From contig NC_086108.1 in assembly GCF_963921235.1 (NCBI RefSeq), positions 73,162,001-73,226,000 of the forward strand: a stretch of DNA of 64,000 nt. The letters run 5' to 3'. A program made the translations under genes and the position numbers. Below the pieces are notes generated by a model. It had not been told where the DNA came from. It saw only the letters and a program-made list of their open reading frames with translations, and did not search any database. Source of the DNA: Mobula hypostoma. Its lineage: Eukaryota. This document shows positions 4,654 through 64,000 of the stretch, one piece after another; positions within the stretch are counted from its first letter, which is position 1; every line of letters begins with the position of its first letter.

Positions 4654-5554
4654 CCACACATCAAAGTTGCTGGTGAAAGCAGCAGGCCAGGCAGCATCTC
4701 TAGGAAGAGGTACAGTCGACGTTTCAGGCCGAGACCCTTCGTCAGGACTAACTGAAGGAAGAGTTAGTAAGAGATTTGAAAGTGGGAGGGGTAGGGGGAG
4801 ATACAAAATGATAGGAGAAGACAGGAGGGGGAGGGATGGAGCCAAGAGCTGGATAGGTGATTGGCAAAGGGGATATGAGAGGATCATGGGACAGGAGGCC
4901 TAGGGAGAAAGAAAAGGGGGGGGGAAACCCAGAGGATGGGCAAGGGGTATAGTCAGAGGGACAGAGGGAGAAAAAGGAGAGTGAGAGAAAGAATGTGTGT
5001 ATAAAAATAAATAACAGATGGGGTACGAGGGGGAGGTGGGGCATTAGCAGAAGTTGGAGAAGTCGATGTTCATGCCATCAGGTTGGAGGCTACCCAGACG
5101 GAATATAAGGTGTTGTTCCTCCAACCTGAGTGTGGTTTCATCTTTACAGTAGAGGAGGCCGTGGATAGACATGTCAGAATGGGAATGGGATGCGGAATTA
5201 AAATGTGTGGCCACTGGGAGATCCTGCTTTTTCTGGCGGACGGAGCGTAGATGTTCAGCAAAGTGGTCTCCCAGTCTGCGTCGGGTCTCACCAATATATA
5301 AAAGGCCACATCGGGAGCACCGGATGCAGTATATCACCCCAGTCGACTCACAGGTGAAGTGATGCCTCACCTGGCAGGACTGTTTGGGGCCCTGAATGGT
5401 GGTAAGGGAGGAAGTGTAAGGGCATGTGTAGCACTTGTTCCGCTTACACGGATAAGTGCCAGGAGGGAGATCAGTGGGGAGGGATGGGGGGGACGAATGG
5501 ACAAGGGAGTCGCATAGGGAGCGATCCCTGCGGAAAGCGGGGTGGGGAGAGGAC
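4654..5554 (-). mobile_element. Penelope-like element, 5'-truncated (GIY-YIG endonuclease end plus terminal repeat)
   Basis: ORF 5044..5556 has CYTC and GVIYCIRCSRCGLLYIGET..LEEQHLIFRLGSLQPDGMN. TSD AAGAGTACA at 4641-4649 and 5555-5563. Confidence 0.92.
4714..4749 (-). ncRNA. Minimal type I hammerhead ribozyme in Penelope terminal repeat
   Basis: Minus strand reads AGTC-CTGACGA-AGGgtctcggCCT-GAAAC-GTC-GACT: stem I, CUGAnGA box, stem II, GAAA box, palindromic ACGU, GUC cleavage triplet. Confidence 0.75.
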
Positions 5555-8159: not shown

Positions 8160-8718
8160 CAAACTATTATCATATTTTCTGGGAATGCCCCGTTATCAAA
8201 GAGTATTGGAGTGGGATACATAATGCCCTACAAGACATCTTTAAATATGAAATAGCTTTAGAGAGTAATACCATATATTTTGGGTATATACCTCAAGAAT
8301 AGTTGAACAGAGATAAATATTTAATTAATGTACTGCTGGTGGCTGGTAAAAAGACCCTTACCAGGAAATGGTTATCACAGGAGAGCCCAACTTTAAATGT
8401 GTGGATGGAAATTACAATGGACATTTACAAAATAGAGAAGATAACAGCATCTGTTAATCATAAATTGGAACAATTTTATTCATACTGGAAAAAATGGTTT
8501 AACTACATAACACCTCATAGGCCTGATTTTATTCTTACAAGTCAATGAATATGTTGTAAAAAAAAGATCACTTCCTACTCTGTACAGTTTTCTTCTTTCA
8601 ATTGTTCTTTCTTTCTTCTCCTTTCTATACATATATACCTCAGATAAATATTATGTGGAGATTTGTGACAAATATGATTATATGATATATATGTGTACAG
8701 TATCTGAAATACATCTTA
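8160..8718 (+). mobile_element. L1/Tx1-type LINE 3' fragment
   Basis: HIFWECP-like motif near 8170 and ORF 8303..8548 (AGKKTLTRKWL..PTLNVW..W) resemble the L1 ORF2 C-terminus. Confidence 0.7.
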
Positions 8719-9215
8719 TTAATCCTTCTACTGCTTCCTTTACACTCTGATCTCTGCTCTTGGTTTCCTCATCCACAACGTCATCTGACAAAGTCTCTGT
8801 TTTCATACCTTCATTGATTCCTTTCTTTTTGACCTTCCATTCATCCAGCTGGGTTTTAGTCTTTGCATTTACTTTTACAAGCAGCTTTTTGTCTCCCACT
8901 TGAAGTTCATGCAATAACAATGCACGCAGTGTAGATTCTGGTTCTTTATATTCACAAAAGATGAATGCGTTCAACTTTCCTGAAGCACCTCGAACTCCCT
9001 TCCAGCTTAAAACCAAGCCACATTTCACAAGTATCTGCTTGATTAACATATCAGAAGCTTTCTCGGATATGTTGCCTACAAAAACTGTTGTAGTTGGACC
9101 ACTGCTTTCATCACTTTCACACTTCCTCTGAGCAGCATGCTCCTTCCTTGGTCCAATATGTTTTCCAACACGAGGTACAAAGGTTGGCACCATCACCTGT
9201 TTGCCCTTTGTTGGG
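8716..9215 (-). pseudogene. RBM25: Intronless partial retrocopy of RBM25 (RRM region)
   Basis: ORF 8678..9316 contains GPTTTVFVGNISEKASDMLIKQILVKCGLVLSWK..GASGKL..FCEYKEPESTLRAL..KKLLVKV..KTKTQLDEWK..DEETK, which I recognise as the RBM25 N-terminal RRM. No introns. The Pro-rich N-terminus and RE/PWI C-terminus are absent. Confidence 0.9.
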
Positions 9216-9219
9216 CAAT

Positions 9220-12200
9220 GGTTGATGGTTTTCAGCATGGAGATAGTTTTGATATCATCCAGTACATTTCTGAATTCACTTTCATATGGCTTCATTGCAG
9301 GGGATGTGGCATGCAAATGGTGAATAGATCTCCAATCAAGTTGTAGTTGTCTCAGCCACTTCTAACCCCACAATGCTAGTTCTCCTGCTTTTACCGCATA
9401 CAAGGTCAATGTGGCTTGTTGGTTGTTGTATTTCACTGGGTATTGAATGTCATTCGCATAGGAGTTATCTTTTCTCCAGTAGAAGTTCTTAATTGGATAT
9501 CAGCAAGCTTCAGTTTAGTATCTTTGAAATGCCTCTCAAACTCGTTTTGTGGAATGATTGAAACACTGTAAATCTCAAGGCTACACAATCCTGTGTCACT
9601 CTCATCATTATCAGATTTTTCATCAACACCATGCTAATTAGTACTCTTTTTGAAACAGCAACTTGAATTTTCAGTGTTTTCTCTTTCCCTGTGCAGACCA
9701 TTTACTTTTGCCTGCCCAATATGCTCTTTGTATGTGTCCTACTTTATTGCATTTACGGAAAGCATCGCCTTTAAATCTGCATTTGTTAGGCATATATGAG
9801 TCCTGCCACAACATTAAATCAATTTATTCAGCCAGGCCGGTTTCTGTTTAGACAATGCAATTTTGTTAATGCTGACTTTCTTTCCAGACTGCAACTCAAT
9901 TATTCCTCTGCTTGTAGTTTCCATTAAAAGAGCAATTTCCATTGCTCACTTAAATGTAACCTGTGCTTCAGTTAGGAGCGATTTTTGAATGATTTCTTTT
10001 ATGATTCCACAAACTGAACAATCTCTTAGTGTATAATTAAGCCAGTTACTGAACTGAAAATGCTTAGACCATCTCTTCAATTCAACCATTCACACTGAAA
10101 TGGACTCCCCTAAAGGGTTCTGCAATGAACAACAGCTTTGGTTCTACGTGTTCCTGTATCACTGTTACAATGGCAGCAAAACTCATTTCTGGTGGTTTGG
10201 TTGGGGCAATCAAACCTTGAAGCAAACTGTATGCCTTTAACGCTAATGTACTTAGCAAAATTGGCATTGATTCTCAATGGCTATTTCATTTGCTTCAAAG
10301 TACTGTTCCAGTAGCTCAATATACATGAGCCAATTTATTTGGAAATGCACGGAGGACTGTGTGTCTCGCAAGACGATCCGGGTATTCCCTAACCAGAAAC
10401 CTTGGATGAATTATGAGGTCAAGTCCCTTTTAAAGGCTAGAGCTGTGGCTTTTAGGTGTGGGGATACCAGTCGCTACCTGGAATCCAGGAGTGAACTCCC
10501 GAAAGCCATTAAGGGTGCCAACAGGCAATATCGAGCCAAGTTGGAAGCCCAGACTAACCAGAGGAATGCCAGTAGACTATGGCAGGGTCTAAATGAGATC
10601 ACTGGGCGCAAAGAAAAGGCTGGGAATATCAATAACTGTGGCGCTTCTCTTCCTGACAAACTTAACGTATTCTATGCAAGATTCGAACAGAAGAGGAGCG
10701 TCCCGCTCCCTCCGGATGAACCAGCCCTGGTGGCATCGAGATTCATCGTCACCGAGGAGGATGTTAGAAGGGCCTTTCTGAAGATAAATCCAAGGAAGGC
10801 GACAGGCCCAGATGGCGACCCAGGACGGGTTCTCCGGCCTGTGCAAGTGAGTTAGCTGGAGGGTTTGCTGACATCTTCAACTGCTCCTTGTTTCAGTCTA
10901 AGATCCCCTCAATTTTTAAGAAGGCAACGATAATCCCAGTGCCAAAGAAGAGCAAGGTGGCATGCCTGAATGACTATCGACCTGTGGCTCTGACATCAAT
11001 TGCTATGAAGTGCTTCGAGAGATTGGTTATGGCACACATCAACCACAGCCTACCGGTCAACCTCGACATTTTGCAATTCGCCTACCGGAGTAACAGGTCA
11101 ATGGCAGATGCCATCTCTCTGGCCCTACATTCCTCCTTCGAACACCTGGAGAATAAAGACGCATACGTAAGGCTCCTTTTCATTGACTACAGCTCTGCCT
11201 TTAATACCATCATTCCAAATAAACTGATTCCTAAGCTCCGGAACCTGGGCCTTAGCACTCAGATCTGCAGCTGGATCTTCAACTTCCTCACAGACAGGAC
11301 CCAGGCTGTAAAAATAGGGGACACGTTCCCCTCTACAATCACTCTGAGCACCGGTGCCCCACAAGGCTGTGTACTCAGCCCCCTGCTGTACTCACTGTAC
11401 ACCCATGATTGTATAGCCAAGTTTCCATCAAACTCAATATATAAGTTTGCTGATGACACAACAATTGTAGGCCGTATATTGGGTAATGATGAGTTTGAGT
11501 ACAGAGAGGAAATTAAGAACCTGGTGGCATGGTGCGAAGACAATAACCTATCCCTCAACGTCAGCAAGGTGAAGGAATTGGTTGCTGAATTCAGAAGGAG
11601 TAGCAGACCGCACGACTCAATTTACATTGGTGGTACACAAGTGGAACAGGTCAAAAGCTTTAAGTTCCTCGGGGTCAATATCACAAATGACCTGACTTGG
11701 TCCAACCAAGCAGAGTTCACTGCCAAGAAGGCCCACCAACACTTTTACTTCCTGAGAAAACTAAAGAAATTTGGCCTGTCCCCTAAAAACCTCACTAATT
11801 TTTATAGATGCACCGTAGAAAGCATTCTCCTAGGGTGCACCACAACCTGGTATGGAAGTTGTCCTGTCCAAGACCGAAAGAAGCTGCAGAAGATCATGAA
11901 CACGGCGCAGCACACCACACAAACCAATCTTCCGTCCGTGGACTCACTTTACACCGCACACTGTCGGAGCAGTGTTGCCAGGATAATCAAGGACACGACC
12001 CACCCAGCCAACACACTTTTTGTCCCTCTTCCCTCTGGGAGAAGGCTCAGGAGCTTAAAGACTCGTACGGCCAGATTTGGGAACAGCTTCCTTCCAACTG
12101 TGATAAGACTGCTGAACGGATCCTGACCCGGACCTGGGCCATACCCTCCAAATAATCGGACCTGCCTCTGATTTTTTTTTGCACTACCTTACTTTCCATT

Positions 12201-45089: not shown

Positions 45090-48000
45090 AATCCTTGCGT
45101 CCATGCATTGATTACCAGGGACTGAAAGAAGTCACTGTTAAGAACTGTTACCCTCTTCCACTCATGACCTACTACAATGAACCTCAGTTTTCAACAAGCT
45201 TGATCTCTGTAATGCCTATCATCTGGTCTGCATCTGCGAAGGGGTTGAGTGGAAGACGGCCTTCAACACCGCCTCAGGCCATTATGGGTATCTGGTCATT
45301 CCACTCAGTCTCACCAATTTCCCTGCTGTCTTCCGAGCCCAGGTAAGTAATGTGCTCAGGGAAATTCTGAACCAATTTGATTTTGTGTATCTCGACGACA
45401 TTTTAATTTTTTTCCAAGTCCCTTGCTGAACACACAGGTCACATTCACAAAATTCTCCAGCGCCTTCTGGAGAACCAGCTCTTTGTGAAGGCTGAGAAAT
45501 ATGAGTTTCATCACAATACCGTCTCCTTCCTGGGGTACGTAATCTCAGGCAGTTCCATTCAGATGGATCAATAGAAAGTCAGCTCAGTGGTCAAATGGCC
45601 CCAACCCTCGACTCGTTGGGAGTTGCAACACTTCTTGGGCTTTGCTAACTTCTATTGCCGCTTCATCAGAAATTACAGTACACTGGCTGCAACACTCATT
45701 GCTCTTACCTCATCGACTGTCAGATTATCCTGGTCCCCTGCTGCTGAAAAAGCGTTCTCTGACCTGAAGGAACGTTTCACCTCTGCCCCCATTCTGATTC
45801 AACCTGACACCAACCGACAGTTCATTGTGGAAGTAGATGCATCTGACACTGGTGTAGGAGCTGTTCTCTCTCAATGCTCAGCCAAGTATGAGAAGGTACA
45901 CCCCTGCAACACATTCTTCTCTGAAGGAGCGGAGGCATTGGCTGGAGGGCGCAAAGGTGCCATTCTTAGTCTGGACTGATCACTTGAACCTGGAATATAT
46001 CCGTATGGCCAAGCGTCTCAACTCCCATCAAGCTCGTTGGTCCCTGTTTTCCTCAAGATTCAACTTTACTCTGTCCTTCCGCCCCGGTTCCAAGAATGGA
46101 AAACCTGGTGCTCTCTCCCGTAGATTTCCTTCCTCTGAGACCCCTGAGGTACCCGACATCATCCTCCTTGCTCACTGTCTTGTGAGTGCGGCGCAATGGG
46201 ATATTGAATCCATTGTGCAAGCTGCTCAACAAAGTGAGGAAGCCCCTAGTCCAGTGGTCTCCTACCACCAGGCTGCAGACCAGTACTGGATCACGAGGAA
46301 AAGATATGATTTGGTGATATGAACTGACATGAGTCAGCTGCACCTTTTCTCGTTCCCTGTCCCGTCCACTGTTGAACTTGAATGCACACGAGGTCTGCAA
46401 GAATATTGTCAATATTAAACCGGTCCACAGTGCGCAAAAGGTTGGGGACCCCTGCCCTAGTCAATGCCCCACTAACCATATTTATGTTCCCAGCTCTGTC
46501 CACTCACAGGTATTGCAGTGGGGTCATTCTTCCCGGTTATCCTGTCATCCTGGAACCAGGCGTACTCAGACCCTCATCAGTCGGTGGTTCTGGTGGCCCT
46601 CCATGGGAGATGACATCCGCAACTTTGTCTCAGCCTGCTCAGTTTGCGCTCAAGGCGAGAACTCTAACAAGTCACCTGATGGTCTGTTACAAGCCAGGTC
46701 TACCCTCAAGAGACCCTGGTCCCACATTGACCTGGACTTTGTCACTGGTCTTCCCCCATCAGATAGTAACACCACCATCCTCACAGTAGTTGATCGTTTC
46801 TCCAAGTCTGTACACTTCATTCCTTTACCTAAACTTCCCTTGGCCAAAGAAACAGCCAAATTACTAATACTGCATGTTTTTAAGTTACATGGTTTACCTG
46901 TAGATGTTGTGTCAGACAGGGGCTCTCAATTCACATCCAACTTCTGGAGGGCATTCTGTAATCTTCTTGGTGCCTCAGTGAGTCTGTCTTCAGGATTCCA
47001 CCCACAGACCGATGGCCAGACCGAGCGGGCCAACTGACTGCTAGAGACAGTATTGCGGTGTCTAGTCTCCCAGAACCCCTCCGCGTGGAGTCAGCAGCTA
47101 CTCTGGCCCAAGTACTCCATAAACTCTCATCTGTCCTCATCCACTGGTCTGTCCCCCTTCGAGTGCTGCCTTGGCTACCAGCCTCCACTGTTTCCTGCCC
47201 AGGAGGAGGAGGTTGGCGTTCCACCTGCCGAGGCATTCATCCGCCGTTGTCAGCAGATGTGGAGGTGCACTCGCTCCGCCCTTCTTCATGCCCCTGCAAG
47301 GATCAAGAGTCAAGCTGACCACCATAGCTCCAAGGCCTCACGTTACCATCAGGGACAGCGTGTGTGGCTTTCAACCCGAGACCTGCCCCTCAAGGTGGAT
47401 TCCCACAAGCTCGCCCATCACTTCATTGGCCCCTTTCCCATTGCTAAAGTCATCAGCCCTGCTGCCGTCCGTCTCAAGCTCCCCTCCACTCTCTGGCACA
47501 TTCATCCCACTTTCCATGTATCCCGCAAGAAGCCCTTCATGAGCCACCCACTGTGTCCTGTCCTCAAACCACCCCCCGGCTCATCGATGGGTCAGAGGCC
47601 TTCACAGTGCGTTGACTGCTGGATGTTCGTTGCCGTGGCCTCCAGTACCTCATGGACTGGGAGGGCTATGGTCCTGAGGAGAGGTGCTGAGTCCCCACCT
47701 GTAACATGCTGGACCCCTCTCTCCTCAGGGACTTTCATCACCAGCACCCAGCTCTACCTGTCGTGACAGCAGGACGCGTCGTTGGGTGGGGGGTTCAACT
47801 GTCTTTTTGTGTGTTTTCCCCCTAGCTGTCAGTCTGTGGTTTTGTACTGCCATGTGCTCCTGTCCCTGCTCCTGCTCTACTCCGGCCCCTGTATTACTGA
47901 GTACTCCGTCTCTCACCTGTTTCTCATTATTACCTGTATTGCTGCCACCTGTGTCTCATTGTGCTCCACCTATCATCTGCTTCTCTGTTTATTGCTCAGT

Positions 48001-48269: not shown

Positions 48270-50520
48270 AATCTGTTGTCCATATCCTAGCTTCTGTTGG
48301 AAGGTCTGTATATAACTGCCATTAGGGTCTTTTTACCCTTGCAGTTTCTTAACTGAACCTGCAAGAATTTAACATCTTCCAATCCTTTGTCACATCTTTT
48401 TACTGATTTGATGCCATTCTTTATCTTCCCCTGCCTACCTTGCAATCCCTCCGATACAATGTATAACCTTGGACATTCAGCTCCCAACTGCAACCATCCT
48501 TCAACCACAATTCAGTGATGGCCACAACATCTTACCTGATAATCTCTAATAGTGCAACAAGATCACACACTTTATTTCTTGTATTGATATATAACACTTT
48601 GAGTACTGTATTTGCTACCCTTTTTGATTCTGATTCCCTAATGCACTGATACTCACCCTGCTAGCTGAAATTTTGCCTTATCCGCCTGCCCTTCCTGACA
48701 ATATGGCTGCACACTATCTCCGCTTTTTTTTTACCATTCATCCTATCCTGAGTTCCCAGCCTCCTGCCAAATTAGTTTAAACCCTCCCCAGAATCTCAAA
48801 CAAACGTGACCACGAGAATATTTGTCCCTCTCGGGTTCAGGTGCAACCTGTCATTTTTGTACAGGTCATACATTCCATGAAGAGATCTCAATGATCCAAG
48901 AGCCTGAAGTCCTGCGTCCTGCTCCCTGCACCAGCTTCTCAGCCACACATTTATCTGCCAAATCTCTGGTGTGTGGCACAAGCAGTAATCCAGAAATTAC
49001 TACCCTGGAATTGCTTCTCAATTTTCTACCTAGCCCTCTAAATTCTCTCTCTTTAGGACCATTTTGCTTTTCCTTCCTATGTCATTGGTTTCAATATATA
49101 CCAAGACATCTGACTGCTCTCCCTCCCCTTCCAAAATGGGTGTAGATACAATCCGAGACATTCCTGATCCTGGCACCTAGGAGGCCACATACCATTTGGG
49201 TGTCCTGTTCATGTCCACAGAATCTCCTGTCTGCTCCCTTGACTATTGAGTCTCCTAACACTACCACTTCCCACTCCTTGCTCTTTCCCTTCTGCACCAT
49301 GGACCCATGCTCAGTGCCTGGTTTCCTCAAGGGAAGATCTTGTCTGACAAATCTGATGGAAATCTTTGAAGAAATAACAAGCAGGATAGACAAAGGAGAA
49401 TCGGTTGATGTTGTGCACTTGGATTTTCAGAAGGCCTTTGACAAGGTGCCACACATGAGGCTGCTTAACAAGTTATGAGCTCATAGTATTACAGAAAAGA
49501 TTCTAGCATAGATGAAGCAGTGATTGATTGGCAGGAGGCAAAGAGTGGGAAGAAAAGGAGCCTTTTCTGGCTGTCTGCCAGTGACTAGTGGTGTTCTACA
49601 GCAGTCTGTGTTGGGACTGATTCTTTTTATGTTATAATTCAATGATCTGGATGATGGAATTGATGGCTTTGTTACAAAGTTTGCAGACAGTATGAAGATA
49701 GGTGGAGGGCAGGTAGTTTTGAGGAATTTGAGAGGCTACAGAAAGATTTAGATAGATTAGGAGAATGGGCAAGAACTGGCAGATGGAATATAGTGTTGGG
49801 AAGTGTATGGTCATGCACATTGGTAAAAGAAATGAAAGGGTTGACTATTTTCTAAATGGAGAGAAAATACAAAAAATGGAGATGCAAAGGGACTTTGGAG
49901 TCCTTGTGCAGGATTCTCTAAAGGTTAATTAGCAGGGTAAGTCTGTGGTGAAGAAGGCAAATGCAATGTTAGAATTAATTTCAAGAAGACTAGAAAGTAA
50001 AAGCAAGGACATAATGTTGAGATTTTATAAAGCACTGACAAGGCCTCACTTGGAGTATTGTGAGCAGGTTTGGGTCCGCTATCTTAGAAAGGATGTGCTG
50101 AAACTGGAGAGAGTTCAAAGGAGGTTCACAAAAATGATTCCAGGATTGAATAGCTTGTCATATGAAAAGCATTTCATGGCTCTGGGTCTGTATTCCCTGG
50201 AATTCAGAAGAAAGAGGGTTGACCTAATTGAAAGCTATTGACTGTTGAAAGGTCTTAATCGAGGGGACATGAAAAGGATGTTTCCTATGATGGGAGAGTC
50301 TAAGACCAGAGGACAGCCTCAGAATAGAGGGGTGTCCTTTTAGAATGGAGATGAGGAATTTCTTCAGCCAGAGGTTGATGGATTTTTAAATGGTCAGGGA
50401 TACAGGGAGAAGGCAAGAGATTGGGGCTGAGAAGAAAATTGGATCAACCATGATGAAATGGCAAGCAGATGTGATGGGCAAAATAGCCCAATTCTGCTCC
50501 TATATCTTAAGGTCTTATAA
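48270..50520. mobile_element. CR1 LINE with inverted 5' part (ORF1 to APE on minus, 48270-49316; RT to 3' end on plus, 49317-50520)
   Basis: Minus: VVVLGDSIVKG, DRLHLN, YRP. Plus: GFLKGRSCLTNL, DFQKAFDKVPH, RPHLEYC. Confidence 0.8.
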
Positions 50521-50530
50521 AAACCATATA

Positions 50531-51245
50531 CAGTGGGCTTCAATTAATTAGGACACATTGGGACCAGTATATTTTGGCCCAATAAGCGGCTGTCCCAATT
50601 AGCCGAAGTTACATGGAAATAGTTAAAAAGCCATAAAGAGACGAACTACTCTTTAACTGAGTAACAAGTTATTTATATATTTAAATATAATATATAACAA
50701 ATTAAAACATTACCAACATTATTACAGTACCATAAAACTGTGTGGTAGTTCATAGTTATCGACAGAAGAATTTGTCCAGTATATGCTGCTGTATTCTTTT
50801 GATTGACTATAAACAAAATTGGCACAGGCACCTATTGCATTCAATGTATCCTCCAAATCTTCATTTTCATTGTAACACTCAAGATTATTACTGATATCTT
50901 CACATTCTTTGTACTTCCTTTCATTATCACTCCCAGCCATTTCTGGCAATACAAAGTCTGAATGCTTTAAACTGCAGTGAGCAAACAGTTCTGAATTGCC
51001 CTACAGACTATTTCTCACCAACTATCAGTGACAAAAATCACTGTCGAACAGCCAGAGAAATGCATGTGACTGCCACTAGTTAGAAGCTTTTCAGCAGCAG
51101 TCTCCTATCCCAATTAAGTGGCAAAGCACCCCAAATAAATGAAGGGAACCCTAGCTATCTTCTCAATGAGTTCTTGTTCTTCAAGGTTTATCCAAAATAA
51201 GCAGCTATCTCAATTAACAAATGCCCAATAAACCAGAGTTCATTA
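50531..51245. mobile_element. Tigger/pogo-like non-autonomous DNA transposon
   Basis: Degenerate inverted ends (cagtgggcttcaattaattagg / cccaataaaccagagttcatta), TA-rich flanks, acidic transposase-tail-like ORF 50722..50949. Confidence 0.55.
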
Positions 51246-52639
51246 TATATAAAATGCTAAAAAGTAAATATGCAACATCCAAAGGGGTAAGTGAAAAATA
51301 ATATTTGTCAACTCATCTTTCCATGGGATTGTGTTATTACTCCAGTTATTCATGACAGACACATCCCAATGCCCCTCAAGATGAGGCGAGAAGCATGCAA
51401 ACCCATTTGCTTTGTTTGTGATCAGCGCTAGGAAAAGGAGAGGAACAAGAATAACATGATTAAGGCAGACCCTGCCCTTCAGTCTTCCAAGGTTCAGGAT
51501 GAACCAGAGGAATGGTAAGGAGGTGACTATGAGGAAGCGTGTAGCAAAGTAAACATAAGGGAGGTGACCCATAGTAGTGCAGGACAGGTATGGGAGCTCA
51601 CAAAGTGTTCGGAGTAAAGCCACTATATAAAAAGCAGAAGTCACACTTCCATCCTTGTAGTCTTCAACCCTTCAACAAGAAGAACACTACAAAAACAATA
51701 ATTCCAAAGGCCAGGGGAACTGTCTTTGTCTCTTGGAAAACGGCTGCAAAAAAAATTCAGCCCAATTTAAGGTAGTGCTAATACACCCAGAAACTGTATT
51801 TGTTTCTGTAGAAGCTAAATTTGCAACAGCTGGAAAGGTCTTAGCTATTGTTTCGGCTGGAGTGTTAAGCCAGTAAGGACTTAGTATGAGTCTGCAGAAA
51901 AAAAACTGTGAAAGGAGATGTCTCACTCGTCTGATTGTGGCGTTTGAGTTACTCTTCTAATGTAGAGAGAAGTATTCTCTTAATCTGACATTGTTGACAA
52001 ATTTCAAGTCTTTCTATAACATTCTTCATTGCATCCAAAAGCTGGACCTGTGTTTTGCCTTGAGATATGAGTAAATAATCAAATCACTGCAAGAGTCTCT
52101 TCTCTATAAAAAAAAAGTGGGTGATCCTCTGATAGCAGTATGTCTGAACAACTTTAGTCATCAGAACTTTCTACTTTCTGAGTGAACCGAAGGATCACAT
52201 CAGTGGTATTATGCCATTAAGCACTGTCAAGGCATGGCCGTACAGGCAGTTTTACTCTAATTTTTTTTTCAAAAAATCATTAAAAGTGTTAAGGCAAATC
52301 GTTGCTGACTACAACGGACGAAATTTGATGGTGCAGTCACGTGGTCTGTAAACTAGTAATGTACTGGCTTCCCTTTTACTGAAGGTGATGGCTAAGTCAT
52401 GGGACTTGGTGAGTTTGGTGACTTCACCCCATAAATTAATCTCCACAAATTTATCTCCAAGTGGAGAGCCAGGGGTAACCCAAAATGAGAGGAGTCGACC
52501 GGGAGGAATTGAATAGACTCGTGGTGCCATCCGATGCTCACGTGCACAGGCTGTGTGGACATTCTGACCAGCCCAGACCCCAAGCAACATCCATCGATGG
52601 CTGCGAGGCCACTGGGAGGAGCCTGCATGAGCCGGCCTG

Positions 52640-53163
52640 ACACACTGTAGTCAGGGTGAATGTTTACTTTAACAGGAACAATCACATTGCCATAGGCAAG
52701 AATTAAGGGCTCCAGTGTATTACTTCACATATGACCAAGAGGTAAGGGCCATTTAGTGGTACTTAAGTTACAATCATCATTCCTCGTAGATCCCCTCAAA
52801 TTATATTCTCTGAGTCATTAAGCTTCAGAGGTGCCCAAGCCAGATGAGATGCTTTCTGTAGTAAATGTGACTTAGTCTGTGAAAAAGCAAATGGTTAGTA
52901 AGGCAACACTGAATAATATTATTATAAACACAATTATTAAAAGTAAAATACAACAAAAGCAACATTTCTGCCTGGAGTTTGAACCTTCTTATGCTAGAAA
53001 CAGCAATGCATTCTGGATGTATTATCCATGGGTAATATATCAATGAGATATTAAAGTAAACTGGAATTTTTTCCTTGCCTTTTGGATCTAAACAAGTGTA
53101 TCTTTTCAATGCACCTCACCTCCCTTCCCCCATCGAAGTGTAGGAGTTCTGTGGTGGATCCAT
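52640..53163 (-). pseudogene. env: Foamy-type env 5' remnant (leader peptide and start of SU); remainder deleted
   Basis: ATG at 53163 (MDPP) just after the pol stop. Hydrophobic run CCFCCILLLIIVFIIILFSVALLTICFF at 52881-52964, about 65 codons in. Then PLPLGHM*SNTLEPLILAYGNVIVPVKVNI. Confidence 0.6.
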
Positions 53164-53643
53164 GTTCCGTTTAAAATAAGATTCTACTCATTCTGAGGGA
53201 ATAAATCCTGCTGGGGCAGGTTTGATGTTCATTATAGAGAAAGTTTTACACTCAACCTTGTTTCCCTTCCTGGTCTCAATTATCCTTGTCCTCTCATTGA
53301 TAACCTGGGCAATGAGACTGGGAGGTTTCCATCTCCAATGAAAACTAGGGTCAGAATTGTTTTTATGGAACTTCTTTTCTTAGACCCAGTCCCCTTTTTG
53401 TGGTTTCCAAACTGTCTTGTCAGGTTCTTTTGCTTTCTCTTAAATTCCCATAAACTCTCTCAGTTCCTTGAAGAGAGCTGTATTGGGTGTAGGCGATGGT
53501 TGATCTGAGTTAGCGATCAGGGATGTATTTAGCCGGACATTGTACATTAAGAGATAAGGTGTAACATTCTTGTGTACTCCTATTTTCACTTTGTTTACAG
53601 ATAGCTGCATTTCAGGGACAAGTGTAAATTACTTGCCTCTAGA

Positions 53644-53973
53644 GTAGCAACACACATAAAAATTGCTGGTGAACGCAGCAGGCCAGGCAGCATCTCTAGG
53701 AAGAGGTACAGTCAACGTTTTGGGCCAAGACTCTTCGTCAGGACTAACTGAAAGAAGAGATAATAAGAGATTTGAAAATGGGAGGGGGAGGGGGAGATCC
53801 GAAATGATAGGAGAAGACAGGAGGGAGAAGGGGTGGAGCCAAGAGCTGGAAAGTTGATTGGCAAAAGGGATATGAGAGGATCATGGGACGGGAGGCCTAG
53901 GGAGAAAGAAAGGGGGAGGGGGGAAGCCCAGAGGATGGGCAAGGAGTATAGTGAGAGGGACAGAGGGAGAAAA

Positions 53974-54057
<84 letters not shown>

Positions 54058-54332
54058 CGGATGGGGTACGAAGGGGAGGTGGGGCATTAGTGGAAGTTAG
54101 AGAAGTCAATGTTCATGCTATCAGGTTGGAGGCTATCCAGACAGAAAATAAGGTGTTGTTCCTCCAACCTGAGTGTGGCTTCATCTTGACAGTAGAGGAG
54201 GCCATGGATAGACATATCAGAATGGGAATGGGATGTGGACCTCTTCCTATAGATGCTGCCAGGCCTGCTGCATTCACCAGCAATTTTTATGTGTGTTGCT
54301 TGAAATTCCAGCATCTGCAGATTTCCTTGTGT
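53644..54332 (-). mobile_element. Penelope fragment with inverted end inserted in the viral integrase
   Basis: 11-bp TSD TTGCCTCTAGA at 53633-53643 and 54333-54343. (GA)n and (AAAT)n expansions at 53977-54057. Confidence 0.9.
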
Positions 54333-54856
54333 TTGCCTCTAGATTAGACTGTTTTTGCCAGGCCTCCTTAATCCCTGGATTCCTTTACTCAACATGCCAC
54401 CTGATTGGGCTGGAATGGAGTGCTGTACTCTACTCGTTTACCTGTTTGTTCACGTGTGGCTTGAATGCCTTTACCACTGAAGGAAGACCCTTAGCTGGCA
54501 CATATGCAGGCAGGAGTGCCAGCACATAGGAGGTATTATTTGCTTCTTGTCTTTTTTTAGGGAGGCATACCCAAACCTTACTTTCACCATCAGCTTCATA
54601 TTTGTACTGTGTTGGAAATCCTTCGGAACTGGGTTTAGTGGTATCAAGGAGAATTCTTACAGCATAATCCTGTTTAATTTTTTTAGTGTTACTTAGTTAC
54701 TACGAAAACCCTGACCTCCCTTACTGTAGTAAGGTCCATCCCAACAGCTTGTTCCACTTTTTGTTACCTTGTTTATTACCACAGCTGTGAAAGAGGGTTG
54801 CAGTATGTCTCAGAATGTGTAACACCTGTAACAATGATCTAGTCAATCATAATTCA

Positions 54857-55348
54857 TAAAGTTCAAAGTAAATTTATTATCAAAGTAAATATAAAGTGCT
54901 GACATTCATTTTCGTGTGGGCATATGCATGGTAGTGTGGTGGTTAGCACAATGCTGTACACAGGTGACCTGGGTTCAATTCCTGTCACTGCCTTTAAGGA
55001 GCTTGTATGTTCTCTCCGTGACCACATGAATTTCCTCTGGATACTCCAGTTACCTCCCAGAGTCCAAAGACATACCGGTTGGGAGGCTAATTGGTCCTGC
55101 GATTAGGCTGGGAGTAAATCGGAGGATCGCTGAGCGAGGGCTGGATGAGCCTATTCCGCACTGAATCTCAATATAAAGAGATAACAAAAGACTGCCCAAC
55201 TTGGATGTTCAACCAGAGTACAGAAGTCAACAAACTATGTAAATACAAAAAGAAATAAATAAAACTAATAAGTAAATAAGCAGTAAATATCGAGAACATG
55301 AGACAAAGAGTCCTTGAAAGGGAGTCCATTGGTTGTGGGAACAGTTCC
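54857..55348. mobile_element. LINE 3' UTR fragment (minus) containing a V-type tRNA SINE (plus, about 54925-55170)
   Basis: aaagttcaaagtaaatttatt tail, A/B-box-like TGGTAGTGTGG and GGTTCAATTCC, and a UTR shared with 20900-21060. Confidence 0.65.
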
Positions 55349-55684
55349 CATATGTAGTTATGGTAGCTCCCCATTCATTTGTTGGTAATTTACTGTCATT
55401 TTTCAAAGTCACAAACTCTGGATAATAACTGGTTTGTCCCTTTGTAGTTGCCTTACTGCAATAAGTGTATAGACATCCTTCTAAGGCAGTACCTTTCTGT
55501 TCTGTTGGGGTGAAATTATATGAGGGATAGTGTATGGGGGCTTGTGTTTCCTCTCCCTCATTATAGCAGCACCGCAGTGGTTTTTGCTGAAATGCTAATT
55601 TACAGAACAAGAGATTTTCTTACAACACACATCAAAGTTGCTGGTGAACGCAGCAGGCCAAGCAGCATCTATAGGAAGAGGCGC

Positions 55685-55720
55685 AGTCGACGTTTCAGGC
55701 CGAGACCCTTCGTCAGGACT
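55685..55720 (-). ncRNA. Minimal type I hammerhead ribozyme, intact
   Basis: Minus strand AGTC-CTGACGA-AGGgtctcggCCT-GAAAC-GTC-GACT. Confidence 0.75.
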
Positions 55721-56014
55721 AACTGAAGGAAGAGTGAGTAAGGGATTTGAAAGCTGGAGGGGGAGGGGGAGATGCAAAATGATAGGAGAAGACAGGAGGG
55801 GGAGGGATAGAGCCGAGAGCTGGACAGGTGATAGGCAAAAGGGGATACGAGAGGATCATGGGACAGGAGGTCCGGGAAGAAAGACAGGGGGGGGGGTGAC
55901 CCAGAGGATGGGCAAGAGGTATATTCAGAGGGACAGAGGGAGAAAAAGGAGAGTGAGAGAAAGAATGTGTGCATAAAAATGAGTAACAGATGGGGTACGA
56001 GGGGGAGGTGGGGC

Positions 56015-58165
56015 CTAGCGGAAGTTAGAGAAGTCAATGTTCATGCCATCAGGTTGGAGGCTACCCAGACGGAATATAAGGTGTTGTTCCTCCAACCTGA
56101 GTGTGGCTTCATCTTTACAGTAGAGGAGGCCGTGGATAGACATGTCAGAATGGGAATGGGATGTGGAATTAAAATGTGTGGCCACTGGGAGATCCTGCTT
56201 TCTCTGGCGGACAGAGCGTAGATGTTCAGCAAAGCGGTCTCCCAGTCTGCGTCGGGTCTCACCAATATATAAAAGGCCACATCGGGAGCACCGGACGCAG
56301 TATATCACCCCAGTCGACTCACAGGTGAAGTGATGCCTCACCTGGAAGGACTGTTTGGGGCCCTGAATGGTGGTAAGGGAGGAAGTGTAAGGGCATGTGT
56401 AGCACTTGTTCCGCTTACACGGATAAGTGCCAGGAGGGAGATCAGTGGGGAGGGATGGGAGGGACGAATGGACAAGGGAGTTGTGTAGGGAGCGATCCCT
56501 GCGGAATGCAGAGAGAGGGGGGGAGGGAAAGATGTGCTTAGTGGTGGGATCCCGTTGGAGGTGGCACTTAGTGGTGGGATTCCGTTGGAGGTGGCGGAAG
56601 TTACGGAGAATAATATGTTGGACCCGGAGGCTGGTGGGGTGGTAGGTGAGGACCAGGGGAACCCTATTCCTAGTGGGGTGGTGGGAGGATGGAGTGAGAG
56701 CAGATGTACGTGAAATGGGGGAGATGCGTTTAAGAGCAGAGTTGATAGTGGAGGAAGGGAAGCCCCTTTCTTTAAAAAATGAAGACATCTCCCTCGTCCT
56801 AGAATGAAAAGCCTCATCCTGAGAGCAGATGCGGCGGAGACGGAGGAATTGCGAGAAGGGGATGGCGTTTTTGCAAGAGACAGGGTGAGAAGAGGAATAG
56901 TCCAGATAGCTGTGAGAGTCAGCAGGCTTATAGTAGACATCAGTGGATAAGCTGTCTCCAGAGACAGAGACAGAAAGATCTAGAAAGGGGAGGGAGGTGT
57001 CGGAAATGGACCAGGTAAACTTGAGGGCAGGGTGAAAGTTGGAGGCAAAGTTAATAAAGTCAACGAGTTCTGCATGCGTGCAGGAAGCAGCGCCAATGCA
57101 GTCGTCGATGTAGCGAAGGAAAAGTGGGGGACAGATACCAGAATAGGCACGGAACATAGATTGTTCCACAAACCCAACAAAAAGGCAGGCATAGCTAGGA
57201 CCCATACGGGTGCCCATAGCTACACCTTTAGTTTGGAGGAAATGGGAGGAGCAAAAGGAGAAATTATTAAGAGTAAGGACTAATTCCGCTAGACGGAGCA
57301 GAGTGGTGGTAGAGGGGAACTGATTAGGTCTGGAATCCAAAAAGAAGCGTAGAGCTTTGAGACCTTCCTGATGGGGGATGGAAGTATATAAGGACTGGAC
57401 ATCCATGGTGAAAATAAAGCGGTGGGGGCCAGGGAACTTAAAATCATCGAAAAGTTTAAGAGCGTGAGAAGTGTCACGAACATAGGTTGGAAGGGATTGA
57501 ACAAGGGGTGATAAAACAGTGTCGAGGTATGCAGAAACGAGTTCGGTGGGGCAGGAGCAAGCTGAGACGATAGGTCGGCCAGGACAGGCAGGTTTGTGGA
57601 TCTTGGGTAGGAGGTAGAAACGGGAAGTGCGGGGTGTGGGAACTATAAGGTTGGTAGCAGTGGATGGGAGATCCCCTGAGCGGATAAAGTCAGTGATAGT
57701 GTGGGAGACAATGGCCTGGTGCTCCTTAGTGGGGTCACGATCGAGGGGTAAATAAGAGGAGGTATCCGCGAGTTGTCGCTGTGCCTCGGCAAGGTAGAGG
57801 TCAGTACGCCAGACTACAACAGCACCCCCCTTATCGGCGGGTTTAATAATAAGGTTAGGATTAGTCCGGAGGGAGTGGAGAGCAGAGCGTTCCGAAGGAG
57901 TGAGGTTGGAATGGGGACAAGGTGCGGTGAAGTCGAGACGGTTGATGTCCCGTCGGCAGTTGGCAATAAAGAGATCCAGAGCAGGCAGAAGACCAGTGCG
58001 GGGTGTCCATGAAGAAGAGGAGGGTCGAAGACGGGAGAAGGGGTCATCGGTGGGGGTGGAAGAGTCCTTGCCGAAGAAGTAGGCTCGGAGACGGAGACGG
58101 CGGAAGAAAAGTTCCGCATCGTGGCGAACACGGAACTCGCTGAGGTGTGGGCGAAGGGGGACAAA
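56015..58165 (-). CDS. Penelope RT plus GIY-YIG endonuclease frame, 5'-truncated
   Basis: ORF 56015..57406 (DVQSLYT, GVAMG, RYIDD, GVIY..LYIGET). The same phase continues upstream (IKPADKGG, FYLLPKIHK, GRPIVS) to the truncation at about 58165. Confidence 0.88.
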   Translation of the reverse strand, partial: FVPLRPHLSEFRVRHDAELFFRRLRLRAYFFGKDSSTPTDDPFSRLRPSSSSWTPRTGLLPALDLFIANCRRDINRLDFTAPCPHSNLTPSERSALHSLRTNPNLIIKPADKGGAVVVWRTDLYLAEAQRQLADTSSYLPLDRDPTKEHQAIVSHTITDFIRSGDLPSTATNLIVPTPRTSRFYLLPKIHKPACPGRPIVSACSCPTELVSAYLDTVLSPLVQSLPTYVRDTSHALKLFDDFKFPGPHRFIFTMDVQSLYTSIPHQEGLKALRFFLDSRPNQFPSTTTLLRLAELVLTLNNFSFCSSHFLQTKGVAMGTRMGPSYACLFVGFVEQSMFRAYSGICPPLFLRYIDDCIGAASCTHAELVDFINFASNFHPALKFTWSISDTSLPFLDLSVSVSGDSLSTDVYYKPADSHSYLDYSSSHPVSCKNAIPFSQFLRLRRICSQDEAFHSRTREMSSFFKERGFPSSTINSALKRISPISRTSALTPSSHHPTRNRVPLVLTYHPTSLRVQHIILRNFRHLQRNPTTKCHLQRDPTTKHIFPSPPLSAFRRDRSLHNSLVHSSLPSLPTDLPPGTYPCKRNKCYTCPYTSSLTTIQGPKQSFQVRHHFTCESTGVIYCVRCSRCGLLYIGETRRRLGDRFAEHLRSVRQRKQDLPVATHFNSTSHSHSDMSIHGLLYCKDEATLRLEEQHLIFRLGSLQPDGMNIDFSNFR

Positions 58166-58958
58166 CGTCGATTTTCTTAGGTCACTTGTCTAAAGGTCTT
58201 TTGCTTGCTAAACTGCAATTATCAATTTCTCTAGTGCCTCATAATCTCCTGGGGTTAAAACAAATGGCTTTACATTTTTTTGGTGTACAACTGTCATATA
58301 ATGGTTTTAACAATTGAACATAGCCAGGTATGAAAGCTCTAGCATAATTCAATAGGTCTCGTGTAGATGGTAAGGCTTTTATTGTCTTTAGATATCCTAT
58401 TCAAGTGACTTTTTGTCTAAATTCAGGAGTTAAAAAACATCCCTGATTTGTAATTGTCATACTTAGAAAATTTACTTTTATACGGCAGAACTGATTTTTT
58501 TTTTCTGTTAATTACATAGTTCTTGTCTGTCACTTTCAAGAAATTTATACTTTTATGAGTGAAATCCTTGCAACATTTATTGTAATAGCTGTGGCTGTAT
58601 TGAAATAGCAGGGTCAACTTTTGCCAAAAATGCGAGCTTAGGCATATGTATGCCAGTATCTTATTCATCATAAGTACAATTTTGATTAGAGTTGTTGCTA
58701 AAAATTCTCCTGTGCAGTTTTTGCTACATTAACCTTAACCCCCTCCTTATTTGCATTTTGTTATCCTGAACTGCAGGTGAGGGGGTGGATATTTGGGAGG
58801 TGACTTGTCCTGTTATATATTTGGAAGACGAACGGTGAGTCAGGCCTTGTGGTGTGTGCCCAGTTTAACAGTATACTCTTCTCTATAATATAGATGGAGC
58901 CTCTGAATTTTCCCTCTGTCTCTTCCACACAGAAAGTGGGAGGAGCTTAAGGTCAAAG

Positions 58959-59914
58959 TTCAAAGTACATTTATATACAACCTTAAGATTCACTTCCTTA
59001 CAGGCAGCCACAAAAAACAATGAAAGCCAATAGAACCCATTAAGAAAACAAGACCGTCAAACACCCAATGTGCAGAAAAAGGAACAAATCATGCAAACAG
59101 TAAAAATAAGCAAATAATATTCAGAACTGGAGCTCACGAGTGAGTCCACAGCCACGAAACCAGTCATCATTGCAGCCGATCCAGGAGCATGTTAATTGCA
59201 GGCCACAGTCTCAATTCAGCACAGGGACAAGTAAATTTTGCAGAGCAGTGAGCTGAATTCTGGCCCGTCCCTCTCTTCCAGACCCGACTCCCTGACTTTT
59301 TTAATCCAGCCCGGTGGTTAAATTGGCCAAACCTTAGGTTCTTCCTCCCCCTCGGGCCCTTTCAGGCCTGGGTACCGCTGCCTCAATTAAGCTCATACCT
59401 GACCATTCCAATCTGGCCCAGTGCTTAAACAGGCTAAACAGCAGTCCTTGCTCTCGGAGCTGAGCCCTGCTGCTTTGATACACTATTAGATCTAGGCCCT
59501 GCCGATGATGCAGCCTATACCCAAGGTTTCCAGTCTGGCCCAGTGCTTAAATCACCCAAACAGTGGGTAGTTCCTCACTCTTGTCTGGGCTCATCTCACC
59601 TCAGTTCTACTGCTTTGAATCCCCTTCAAGTCCACTCCAGCAATGGCCAAATATTGGCTCATTCCTGCTCTCGGACCCTGGCCCCACCACCTCAGTTTGG
59701 CCTGTACGCACTATGCAGCAACCATTCTGCACCTTCAAGGCTTCAGTTCACATTCAAAAATGCCAGGTCAAACAGGCAGGTTCAAAGCTCAATTACAGAA
59801 GGGAAGTTATAGGCTAGTGATTTCAGTGATTGTGTATGAGAAAAAGTGTGATTTTTAAAATAGTTAATAGTTTTGGTTGCAGCCAGCAAGTCACTGCTGT
59901 GCTTCACCTTTAAC
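58959..59914 (-). mobile_element. Non-autonomous LINE-tailed retroelement inserted in gag
   Basis: (CTTTGAA)n-type tail at the left end. Possible TSD CAAAG at 58954-58958 and 59915-59919. Confidence 0.55.
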
Positions 59915-61772
59915 CAAAGCCTATACTATAGGCCGTGGCCTATACCTAGTGTCTAGCCGTCTACTGTAGGTTGTGGGTGAATATATCTTCCTAAGGGCAG
60001 GCAGTCTCCTGGGAACTTGCTTTGTTTGTTGATTACATCTTCTCTGTTGAGAGGCTGATGTAGGGGAACACTGTGAATGCGGTCGACCTGAGGAACAAGG
60101 TTAGTTTGATAACTTTGTTACTGAGCCAATATACCCTTTAGAGGGAAAAGCAGAGAACTCTATTCCAGCAGCTTGTTGTCCTTGTGTGGGAATGAGTGGT
60201 AATCCAGCTACCGCCATGTGGGTGCACAGGAACCTGAAATCGTTCATGTATTGGGTGTTGATTAAGGGCCATTCCACACATGGTGCAGAGGTTTCCACTA
60301 GGTTAAAGGGGTAGCATCATAGAATGAACCAGGTCCCAGTTTGCTCATACCATCTGTTCTCTGAGCTTATAAACTGCTATTAAGCCCTGGCTTTTGACTA
60401 TTTTACTCAACACAGTGCTAAGTTCTCCTCATATAGTACATCTCCACTATTAATTTGTTTATAAACCCATGCATGTGGATTTTCACACTCATGTAGAGGT
60501 GGTACCATGGCTATGGGAATTATCATTAATAAGAATTGATGAGCAATGACATTACTATGAATTGCTGAAAATGTTGGGAGTATGATTGGTCCAGTATCTC
60601 CCAGTTTTCTGAAGTAGCCTCTTCAGAATTCTTTCAGCATTAGCATGTTTCCTAAAGTTGTCATAGCCAGAGGCGGTTGTGGGGATAAGCTCCCACTACC
60701 TGTAAAGTGCTCCAAATGGCATGCATCACTAACAGCCTCTGACAGCCAAGTCCAACTCTTGGCCTTCACGTGTGACTTAGCTACTAAGCCCGGTGGAACT
60801 GTTTCTACTGACAAGAGAAGGGGCAAAGGTGAACCACTGGCGCCTCAAAACCAGTTGCTTCGGGCAGGTGGGGCTCGTCAGCCTTGGACGGCAGCCCCCC
60901 TAGGGAAGGAAAACTCTGATTTTAAACCTCCGCTGCCTTGCGTCCATACCGACCCATGGGAAAGGCTTCAGGAACAAACCCCGAGGAAGAAATCCAGAAC
61001 CGGAGTACCTAAGGTAGTTTCAAAGGTTTCAAAGGTTTCAAAGGTACATTTCATGTTATAATAACAGAGAAATGTATACAATATGCACCCTGAAATTCTT
61101 TTTTTCCAACCTCCACAAAAACAGAGGAGTGCCCCAAAGGATGAATGACAGTTAAATGTAAGAACCCCAAAGATCCCCACCAGTTCCTCCTTCCCACACA
61201 AAAGCAGCAGCAAAGCAGCGATCCCCCCTCCTCCACCAACAAAAAAGCATCGGTGCCCTTCACTGAGCACTCAAGCATGCAGCAAAGCATCAATAAAGAC
61301 ACAGACTTGCAGTACCCCAAAGGCTACTCGTTCACCTGGTAATTCGACATATCACAGGCTCGCTCTCTCCCTAATAAGGGAGAAAGGGGTGTCCCGTTTC
61401 ACAGCGAGAGGGGAGACATAACAAACAACTAACTGATTTATGATGTTAAAAGTCTGTTGTGTTGCTTTTTTCGATCTCTGTGCCAAAGAACTCGGGTGTC
61501 TGGGCGCACAGCCAGCAGCCAGCTTGCTGCTTTCGATCTTCCGTCTCCCACGACACACCAATTTCCTGAGGCGGCACCAACCTCGAGTCTGCCCGCCTCC
61601 AGAGCCCTGAACCCTGAAGGCACACTAGTCTTTTAGGCCACGTCTTTGTTATATCAAATAGTGGCCGGTCGTGAGACCCCAAGTGTGGGTCCTATTCCCA
61701 CAAAGAACTGAAGCCAGCATGTAACCCAGGTCAGGGTCTTCAAAAGAACGCTGAAAGGGAAAAATAGGGATA

Positions 61773-63322
61773 CAGCTTTCCCCCGCCATCTGAAGGTAGA
61801 GCGTTCCTATGAAACGGTTCGTAAGCCGAAATGTCATAAATCGAAGAAGCAATTACCATTTATTTATATGGGAAAATTTTGTGAGCGTTTGCAGACCCAA
61901 AAATAACCTACTAAATCATGCCAAATAACACATAAAACCTAAAATAACAGTAACATATAGTAAAAGCAGGAATGATATGATAAATACACAGCTTATATAA
62001 AGTAGAAATACTTTTCCCAATCATTACTGAACTGTTCTCCATAGCGAAAATCTCACACAAGCGCAGTCGGCAGAAAATCTCACGCAAGCGCTGTTGGCAA
62101 GAACACTCTCTGTAGTAACCCTTAAGCTATGAAGCTGGCAAATCATACCAAATAACACGTAAAAATACACAGCCTATATAAAGTAGAAATAATGTATGTA
62201 CAGTGTAGTATCACGTACCGGAATCGGGAAGACAGCTTGCCGAGCACACTGATGATGATGTGTTAGACTGAGTCGTCGCAGGCTGGGATGGTGCAGTGGC
62301 CCCCATCCTCCAGGTGGCTGAGTGATACATTACCACGAAGAACGCAGGGGTCCAGCGGTAGCCGGGAGGTACACAGCACATCTTTAAGAAAAAAGCCGAA
62401 ACAAACATGCTAATTAATTAGGTGCCGCCCGTAATTGTCGGCCCAGATCAGTGCTGATTTCCGATTGCGTCGTCTCTGATCTGGGCCGACAATTACGTGT
62501 GGGCGGCACCTAATTAATTAGCATGTTTATTTCGGCTTTTTTCTTAAAGATGTGCTGTGTGCCTCCCGGCTACCTTTGCATTCTCCATGAATCGGTATCT
62601 GTCCGTGGCCTGGGGGTTGGGGTGGTGGGACACTGGGGTGTCATCTCGTCGTCTGTTTCCATTAGAGCAGGCAGCTCATCTTCTATCTCTGCCCACCTCG
62701 ATGTCGAAGGTCAAGGTTTGTCGTCTGCTGTGGCTGATGTGAAAGGCTTGCTTGACTGCTGAGCCTCGCGCATTTTTCTATCACACAGTTCTTTAATAAG
62801 GACTGAAACCATCCTGCAAATATCCCCTAAACCAACGTACCCTTTCAAAACTAGAGTCATACTTTATCATTACTCATTCAGTTTCGATTGTTATCCTTTT
62901 TTCTTCCAATTGCTTCAGCTCTTCATCTGTCAGTTCTTGGTGATGGGATGCCAAAACCTCTTCAACATCATGTTCGTTAGCTTCCCCAAGCCAAACTCAC
63001 TTTGTCCTACTTCGTTCACCACGATCAAAATGCTTAATGATGTCTAGTTTTACCGTAAGTGTAACAGCCTTACGAGCTCTTTCAGGCTTTTCCGATACCA
63101 TAGAACTCATCTTGCAAACGGCTGCTCACAGGCTCGTGTTAAAGCAATGCCGTTCTGAATCCGGGGGAGAGCGGCTGCTCGGGACGCGCTGCCTTTTATC
63201 GCGCGCTGAATTTTTTTTCGTAAGTGAAAACACCTTCTGAAAGCGAAAACAGGATACTAACATAGGTCTTTCGTAACAGTGAGGTTTCGTAAAGCGAACA
63301 TTCGAAAAGCGGGTGACACCTG
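61773..63322 (-). mobile_element. Internally deleted Tigger/pogo DNA transposon
   Basis: TA flanks, imperfect TIRs CAGCTTTCCCCCGC / GCGGGTGACACCTG. From ATG at 63110, RARKAVTLTVKLDIIKHFDRGE (psq-type HTH) joins directly to the C-terminal DVEEVLASHHQELTDEELKQL. Confidence 0.85.
62357..62574. repeat. Long near-perfect inverted repeat (about 95-99 bp arms, 24-nt loop)
   Basis: Arms 62357-62451 and 62476-62574 differ by two substitutions and one 4-nt indel. Confidence 0.95.
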
Positions 63323-64000
63323 TATTAAAGATAGAAATAGAGCTATTTCCGAATATACAAGCAAAGGAGTTGCCGTTAGGTCATACAGCAGGGTTTGGTC
63401 CTTCTAATCTGCATCCTACTCTGAGTTCATTTCCTTCATCGTTGTAGTCTCTGACTTGAAGAATAAAATATTCATTGTGTTCGATGTGAGGAGCAGTCAG
63501 GTATTATCCCATATTTCTGATATGGGTTAATATCAGAAGCACATTCATCAAATCGACCAGAAGTTGCCTGCTCAACTGCTGGAGACCAGGATGACGACTA
63601 TTTTACAGTACGAGGTGAGGTGATGTAGCACTTGTCAAGAGCTCTCTGAGCTGGACTATTGCCAGAACATAATTCTTTCGAAAATAATACTTCTGGTATG
63701 ATGTGACAATGTTGTGCACCAACTGTGATGGTATTGGGTTTGCTGACTGCAAAGTTATAAATTCAAATGAAGACTTTAAGCTCTATCCAATATAACTAGC
63801 CACGAGTACTCTCAGTGAAGGGAAATTTTACTGTTACAACCCAATCTTCAAAGACTAGTTTACTTCCCTGTTTATTCTCCAAGGTGAGTTTAGCTGCCAA
63901 TACCCACTATTTGAGTGGTGGGTCCCCCCTTTCAGGGATAAGATACTTCCAGCTCACAAAGCAGTTTAATGCACATCTATGCATATCTTTACAGTGATGC

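Follow-up and report, generated by a model that had tools for sequence, protein, structure and literature searches.

A decayed foamy-type capsid remnant in an endogenous retrovirus of Mobula hypostoma

A 64,000-nucleotide stretch of the Mobula hypostoma genome (hereafter the window) raises the question of whether a short, broken frame on its minus strand is what is left of a foamy virus capsid gene and, if so, what kind of element it came from. It is animal DNA in which non-LTR retroelements and Penelope-like elements abound, repeats whose look suggests a cartilaginous fish as host. An earlier note, made from the sequence alone, had read part of it as the helical central domain of foamy Gag, preceded by a second degraded frame, and had taken this as support for a foamy assignment independent of Pol. 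The peptides quoted there are present. On the minus strand, the main frame opens exactly at 60428 and is interrupted by stops at 60347 and 60305; the two upstream peptides lie in another frame (60601-60569 and 60490-60458, minus strand).

The capsid piece and its match to foamy Gag

The matching part of the main frame comprises 58 ungapped codons with two stops (60252..60425, minus strand). It aligned to residues ~390-447 of PFV Gag, which correspond to helices 5-8 of the CtD-CEN, the C-terminal half of the central domain; the reading as foamy Gag central domain was thus borne out for these helices but not for the whole domain or for the upstream frame. A foamy Gag profile search, proposed in the earlier note, gave Gag_FV_central (PF20672) as the sole Pfam family matched by the piece, with an E-value of 6.1e-5 when the stops were read as X, yet the score of 23.1 bits lies under the curated cut-off of 30 bits. 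The match covered positions 87-144 of the model (58 of 173) and was retained at E 0.0019 when the piece was left inside an unselected frame of 1033 codons. We also looked in Pfam for a better match to a Gypsy- or Arc-type capsid, the competing outcome named in the earlier note, and found none; neither Pfam nor profile searches matched the piece to Gypsy, Arc, Ty3, p24, p30 or orthoretroviral capsid families. The note had further remarked on the absence of an orthoretroviral major homology region. This agrees with the lack of any Pfam match to a zinc knuckle (Cys-His box) or an orthoretroviral Gag family at the gag remnant, but such an absence is weak evidence in DNA so degraded.

Several controls were applied to this match. 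When a profile of 16 foamy Gags was run against all six frames of the whole window, the capsid place was the single place matched (E 1.1e-5), and the next-best place, an overlapping chunk of the same place aside, reached only E 3.1. A foamy Gag profile scored 39.2 on the piece, against a maximum of 27.7 among 78 window tiles. Thirteen natural central domains of foamy viruses were combined into a profile, which gave 27.3 bits on the capsid peptide and 1.1 bits on its reversal, and shuffled peptides reached at most 5.5 bits among the 1541 of 2000 shuffles reported. We then ranked 214 retroviral ORFs from 51 loci against the piece, the references being natural retrovirus genomes in a set without fish, amphibian or reptile foamy-like elements, class III ERV-L/S elements or an identified snakehead retrovirus; all 17 foamy Gags took ranks 1-17, seven of them with E <0.001. 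By tblastn, 6 of 16 foamy Gags matched the capsid place, with 25-36% identity over 50-60 residues. Gammaretroviral, deltaretroviral, lentiviral and betaretroviral Gag profiles all scored below 0 bits on the piece, compared with 19.9 for foamy Gag. Used as a single sequence, the piece matched nothing in the PDB, and its one match in a library of 1.84 billion sequences was a 13-residue tandem-repeat artefact, which we rejected. A protein search with the foamy Gag profile returned 15 matches, 12 of them mammalian foamy Gags and three nameless, with none named as fish or amphibian.

The reversed and shuffled controls, the tile nulls and the rankings together indicate that the piece fits the foamy CtD-CEN beyond chance. 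Judged by its sequence, it is a real but dead fragment of a foamy-type retrovirus capsid gene, and as a sequence signal it does support the foamy assignment independently of Pol.

How much of the capsid is retained was read by hand from the alignment. Structures of the PFV Gag central domain are available (PDB 5M1G/5M1H), and the accessible part of their description (PMC5102385) names V394, I398, L410 and M413 as CtD interface residues; the first three are identical in the piece, whereas M413 differs. Of the 10 columns that are invariant in the foamy alignment, the piece keeps only 3, and at the PGQA position the P alone survives. The YxxLGL/helix 9 region was not above null near the piece, and the Gag N-terminal domain was not found above null upstream of it. 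Decay can explain the loss of both PGQA and YxxLGL. The sub-threshold Pfam score, the near absence of conserved motifs and the undetectable flanking parts of the domain are what one would expect had an amphipathic helix come to resemble Gag by chance upstream of foamy pol remnants. We consider such a coincidence very improbable, because the reversed and shuffled controls score far lower, the capsid place is the sole foamy Gag match in the window, its strand and order are right relative to pol, and its multi-copy depth resembles that at the RT thumb described below.

Flanks of the capsid piece and the pol and env remnants

The upstream frame, which the earlier note had assigned to foamy Gag, did not hold up as such. 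Over the three frames, the best local score of this stretch was equalled by 25 of 100 random tiles, with the quoted frame lower still; anchored extension of the gag match in this direction scored below 0, and the frame gave neither a Pfam match nor a foamy ranking. By position and composition, 60426..60650 (minus strand) is low-copy, A-rich DNA. It may nevertheless be gag (NtD-CEN), since it sits at the NtD-CEN place and is equally A-rich. On the other side, 59930..60251 (minus strand) is probably the 3' part of gag in another frame. A YxxRP motif in it, at 59944-59930, follows the CtD match by ~103 codons, close to the 97 that separate the chromatin-binding sequence from that match in the profile; the score of this region was equalled by 4 of 60 null tiles and is not significant alone.

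Host repeats bound the remnant. Where the 5' part of gag, the primer site and the 5' LTR would be expected (60650..62000), depth is 2e4-1e6 against ~12 for single-copy sequence, which marks very high-copy host repeats from ~60620-60700 upward and places the approximate 5' limit of the viral remnant at ~60650. High-copy host repeats, again recognized by depth, are also inserted between gag and pol (58974..59900, approximate limits). Next to them, 58545..58970 (minus strand) is an A-rich, CpG-poor, low-copy segment, by composition and depth probably the end of gag or the start of pol. The segment, which precedes the RT thumb, is single-copy except for a short multi-copy peak at 58700-58750 (16-24 contigs at 58723). 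Further out, 62357-62574 and 62600-63100 (minus strand) contain a 97% inverted repeat of 74 nt with a second inner pair, next to a CENP-B-type DNA-binding match that is weak (E 0.037); together these are probably a pogo/Tigger-like transposon remnant.

Five pol pieces follow, collinear on the minus strand. The RT thumb (58180..58540, matched at 58508-58254; foamy Pol profile 344-428) was recognized by structure-database search, profile and tree. It matched foamy PR-RT in the PDB at E 1.8e-11, with the next non-foamy entry at E 0.007, and is 35-45% identical to mammalian foamy viruses. The RT connection piece (55461..55565; profile 473-505) lies in register across a Penelope insertion and was equalled by 0 of 200 nulls. 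At 54404..54696 the integrase N-terminal extension (751-779) is followed directly by the core (923-965), with 1 of 200 and 0 of 200 null tiles as high, respectively; on sequence grounds the junction is an internal integrase deletion. The end of the integrase core and the C-terminal SH3 domain (53212..53634; profile 991-1123) matched PFV integrase among solved structures (E 1e-4) and SH3_11 in Pfam. Beyond pol, 52878..52964 (minus strand; profile 62-89) is a probable membrane segment of the Env leader peptide, equalled by 1 of 200 nulls. It stands at the expected distance from the end of pol, but it is hydrophobic and the match is therefore weak.

The order gag then pol is thus present, with spacing in pol kept across both Penelope insertions. 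For the RT thumb and for the integrase end alike, all 17 foamy Pols ranked top among the 214 ORFs. In a tree of 95 columns and 50 rows, in which the thumb was set against gamma, beta, delta, lenti and gypsy sequences only, with no fish or class III elements, it grouped with the 17 foamy rows (96/94), where its branch was long and its position outside them weakly supported (96/35). All six viral segments have a high A content (0.32-0.40) and few CpGs, as do four foamy genomes, and ~3.1 kb of virus-like DNA is left across 7.8 kb.

Much of the element was not recovered: the passage from gag to pol is deleted or interrupted, and no 3' end could be recognized. Foamy profiles and null tiles did not detect the protease or the RT fingers and palm, and we infer that a large deletion near 58540 removed this region. 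No foamy Env profile match to the env body was found across the window, nor was the remainder of env; hydrophobic open frames at 51000-52880 (minus strand) do not self-repeat in the window, and their foamy Env profile score was equalled by 9 of 30 nulls. No LTR pair was found in 50000-64000, and no tRNA-Lys primer site with three mismatches allowed, the region being overrun by host repeats. Rfam gave 0 matches, a word-index search with the RT thumb returned no match and no viral contigs, and the RT profile matched nothing in metagenomes.

The insertion in pol (55623..58169, minus strand) is a Penelope-like RT/GIY-YIG retroelement with an open frame, flanked by a 10-nt direct repeat. It is 5'-truncated and 95% alike to a copy at 4655-5538, a likeness that identifies the family as young. 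A second, short Penelope-like insertion (53646..54336) also has a short flanking direct repeat. Elsewhere in the window, RT, RNase H and integrase of a degraded gypsy-type pol, with no relation to the foamy element, occupy 45190-47770 (plus strand), and a second remnant lies at ~1-1300. A 227-codon open frame at 8678-9361 (minus strand) contains an RRM (Pfam E 1e-7) and resembles a piece of RBM25.

Copy number, shared locus and age

The whole or part of the stretch was carried by 20 of 24 listed sequencing runs, from ten organisms, with no RNA runs listed among them. Contig depth was examined in four runs, one each from organisms A, B, C and E. Relative to single-copy sequence, summed depth in run X1 was roughly 30 times as high over the capsid piece and 65 times over the RT thumb, and at a single gag position the four runs gave 10-21 differing contigs. 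This raised depth, which is not itself a copy number, and the many differing contigs point to a multi-copy family to which the foamy remnant belongs. Among the paralogous contigs listed, several cease to match by ~58540 and continue with other sequence.

Contigs of B, C and E bridge the ~58540 deletion point at about single-copy depth, which indicates that the deletion is old and common to several species; the repeat/gag junction is also bridged by contigs of B and C. Compared with the window, B differs at 19 of 772 bases, C at 51 of 866, and E at 20 of 262, 27 of ~500 and 45 of 460, so that the apparent orthologous loci of the three other species diverge by ~2.5-10%. From the sequence inside the element, this looks like the same locus in all three. 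A divergence of 6% would translate into ~60 or ~130 million years with the substitution rates assumed in PMC10699275 (0.5e-9) and PMC4422223 (2.2e-10), respectively, although both rates are themselves guesses.

A locus kept in at least four species invites the idea that the host retained the gag piece for a function as a co-opted capsid, and co-option of a foamy env in geckos is described in the available part of PMC6669660. We regard this as exceedingly unlikely here: there are two stops in 58 codons and no start or long frame, the assembly motifs are lost, and the gag side differs by 5.9-7.6% in two species, as much as the rest of the locus. The deletions, the insertions, the related copies and the apparent shared locus instead identify the element as an old, decaying endogenous foamy virus.

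Lineage and history of the element

Exogenous foamy viruses (PFV/SFV, feline, bovine, equine) have in common with the Mobula element CtD-CEN helices 5-8, the RT thumb, the integrase C-terminal domain, the order of gag and pol, with env probably following, and the A-rich composition. Unlike them, the Mobula element is dead and deleted, its PGQA is mostly gone, and YxxLGL, the LTR and accessory genes were not found. An endogenous foamy virus of cartilaginous fish, covering sharks and rays and titled as the root of vertebrate foamy viruses, has reportedly been described by Wang, Chen and Cui in 2023 (J Virol). Going by that title, it too is an endogenous foamy virus in cartilaginous fish, and the Mobula family could be, but need not be, among the lineages it comprises. 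The find is accordingly less notable than the earlier note implied, being a degraded copy of an already described class of element. Our search of the accessible literature turned up no account of the gag gene in foamy elements from sharks or rays.

Foamy-like elements of fish (FLERVs: CmiFLERV, teleost elements and ERV-Spuma.0-Sca) share a foamy-like pol with the Mobula element but, in the accessible parts of PMC5512871, PMC5210030 and PMC10699275, have no gag recognizable as foamy Gag, whereas the Mobula element has one. Instead of belonging to the coelacanth and tetrapod foamy lineage, the element could still be a FLERV like those of ray-finned fish or chimaeras, or some other class III retrovirus. 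The tree had no FLERV or class III rows and so could not separate the two, the RT thumb is just 35-45% identical to its mammalian counterparts, and a catshark element is reported to cluster with ray-finned fish FLERVs (PMC10699275, available part). However, the same body of work, as far as accessible, describes teleost foamy-like gag genes without detectable homology to foamy Gag (PMC5210030), pol alone detected in ghostshark (PMC5512871) and a catshark consensus without a Gag domain (PMC10699275), whereas a mammalian-foamy Gag profile does match the Mobula piece. We therefore think a FLERV or other class III origin unlikely; it is a matter of lineage, not of kind, and the alignable Gag favors placement with coelacanth and tetrapod foamy viruses. 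CoeEFV and the tuatara ERV-Spuma-Spu are, by the accessible parts of PMC3386198 and PMC6669660, multi-copy endogenous foamy viruses like the Mobula family. In tuatara, both the central region of Gag and its chromatin-binding sequence are preserved (PMC6669660, available part). According to the same partial sources, both elements keep LTRs and a conserved env, whereas the Mobula env is nearly gone.

Taken together, the locus is very probably a germ-line insertion of a foamy-type (Spumaretrovirinae-like) retrovirus on the minus strand, at ~60650-52900, and one copy of a multi-copy family. Its history would have begun when such a virus entered the germ line and then spread to many copies. By analogy with PFV, the ancestral protein would have folded into a helical domain of the capsid, with helices 5-6 packing on the N-terminal half and, in the assembly, on a second copy. 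From the pattern of decay, this copy would then have lost the protease, the RT active-site region, part of the integrase, most of env and the LTRs, and gathered host retroelements, and would now be functionless. Fixation of the insertion would predate the separation of at least four host species.

A bolder reading can be offered only tentatively, and we hold it to be somewhat doubtful. The family would be a multi-copy lineage that has so far escaped description, formed by true foamy viruses of the sarcopterygian type in a group of cartilaginous fishes and distinct from published lineages, with a recognizable capsid CtD that keeps its interface residues; this one locus would have orthologues in four species at least, perhaps in ten. 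Its minimum age would be tens of millions of years, and the foamy capsid design would predate the split of sharks and bony fishes.

Because the copy has no function and foamy fossils of cartilaginous fishes have already been reported, the gain is incremental. In the literature, as far as accessible, fish foamy-like elements are known almost solely by pol, and their gag is unalignable to foamy Gag. An element from a basal vertebrate with an alignable capsid piece helps to gauge how old the foamy capsid is, and a shared insertion would supply a host-based date for calibrating foamy virus evolution.
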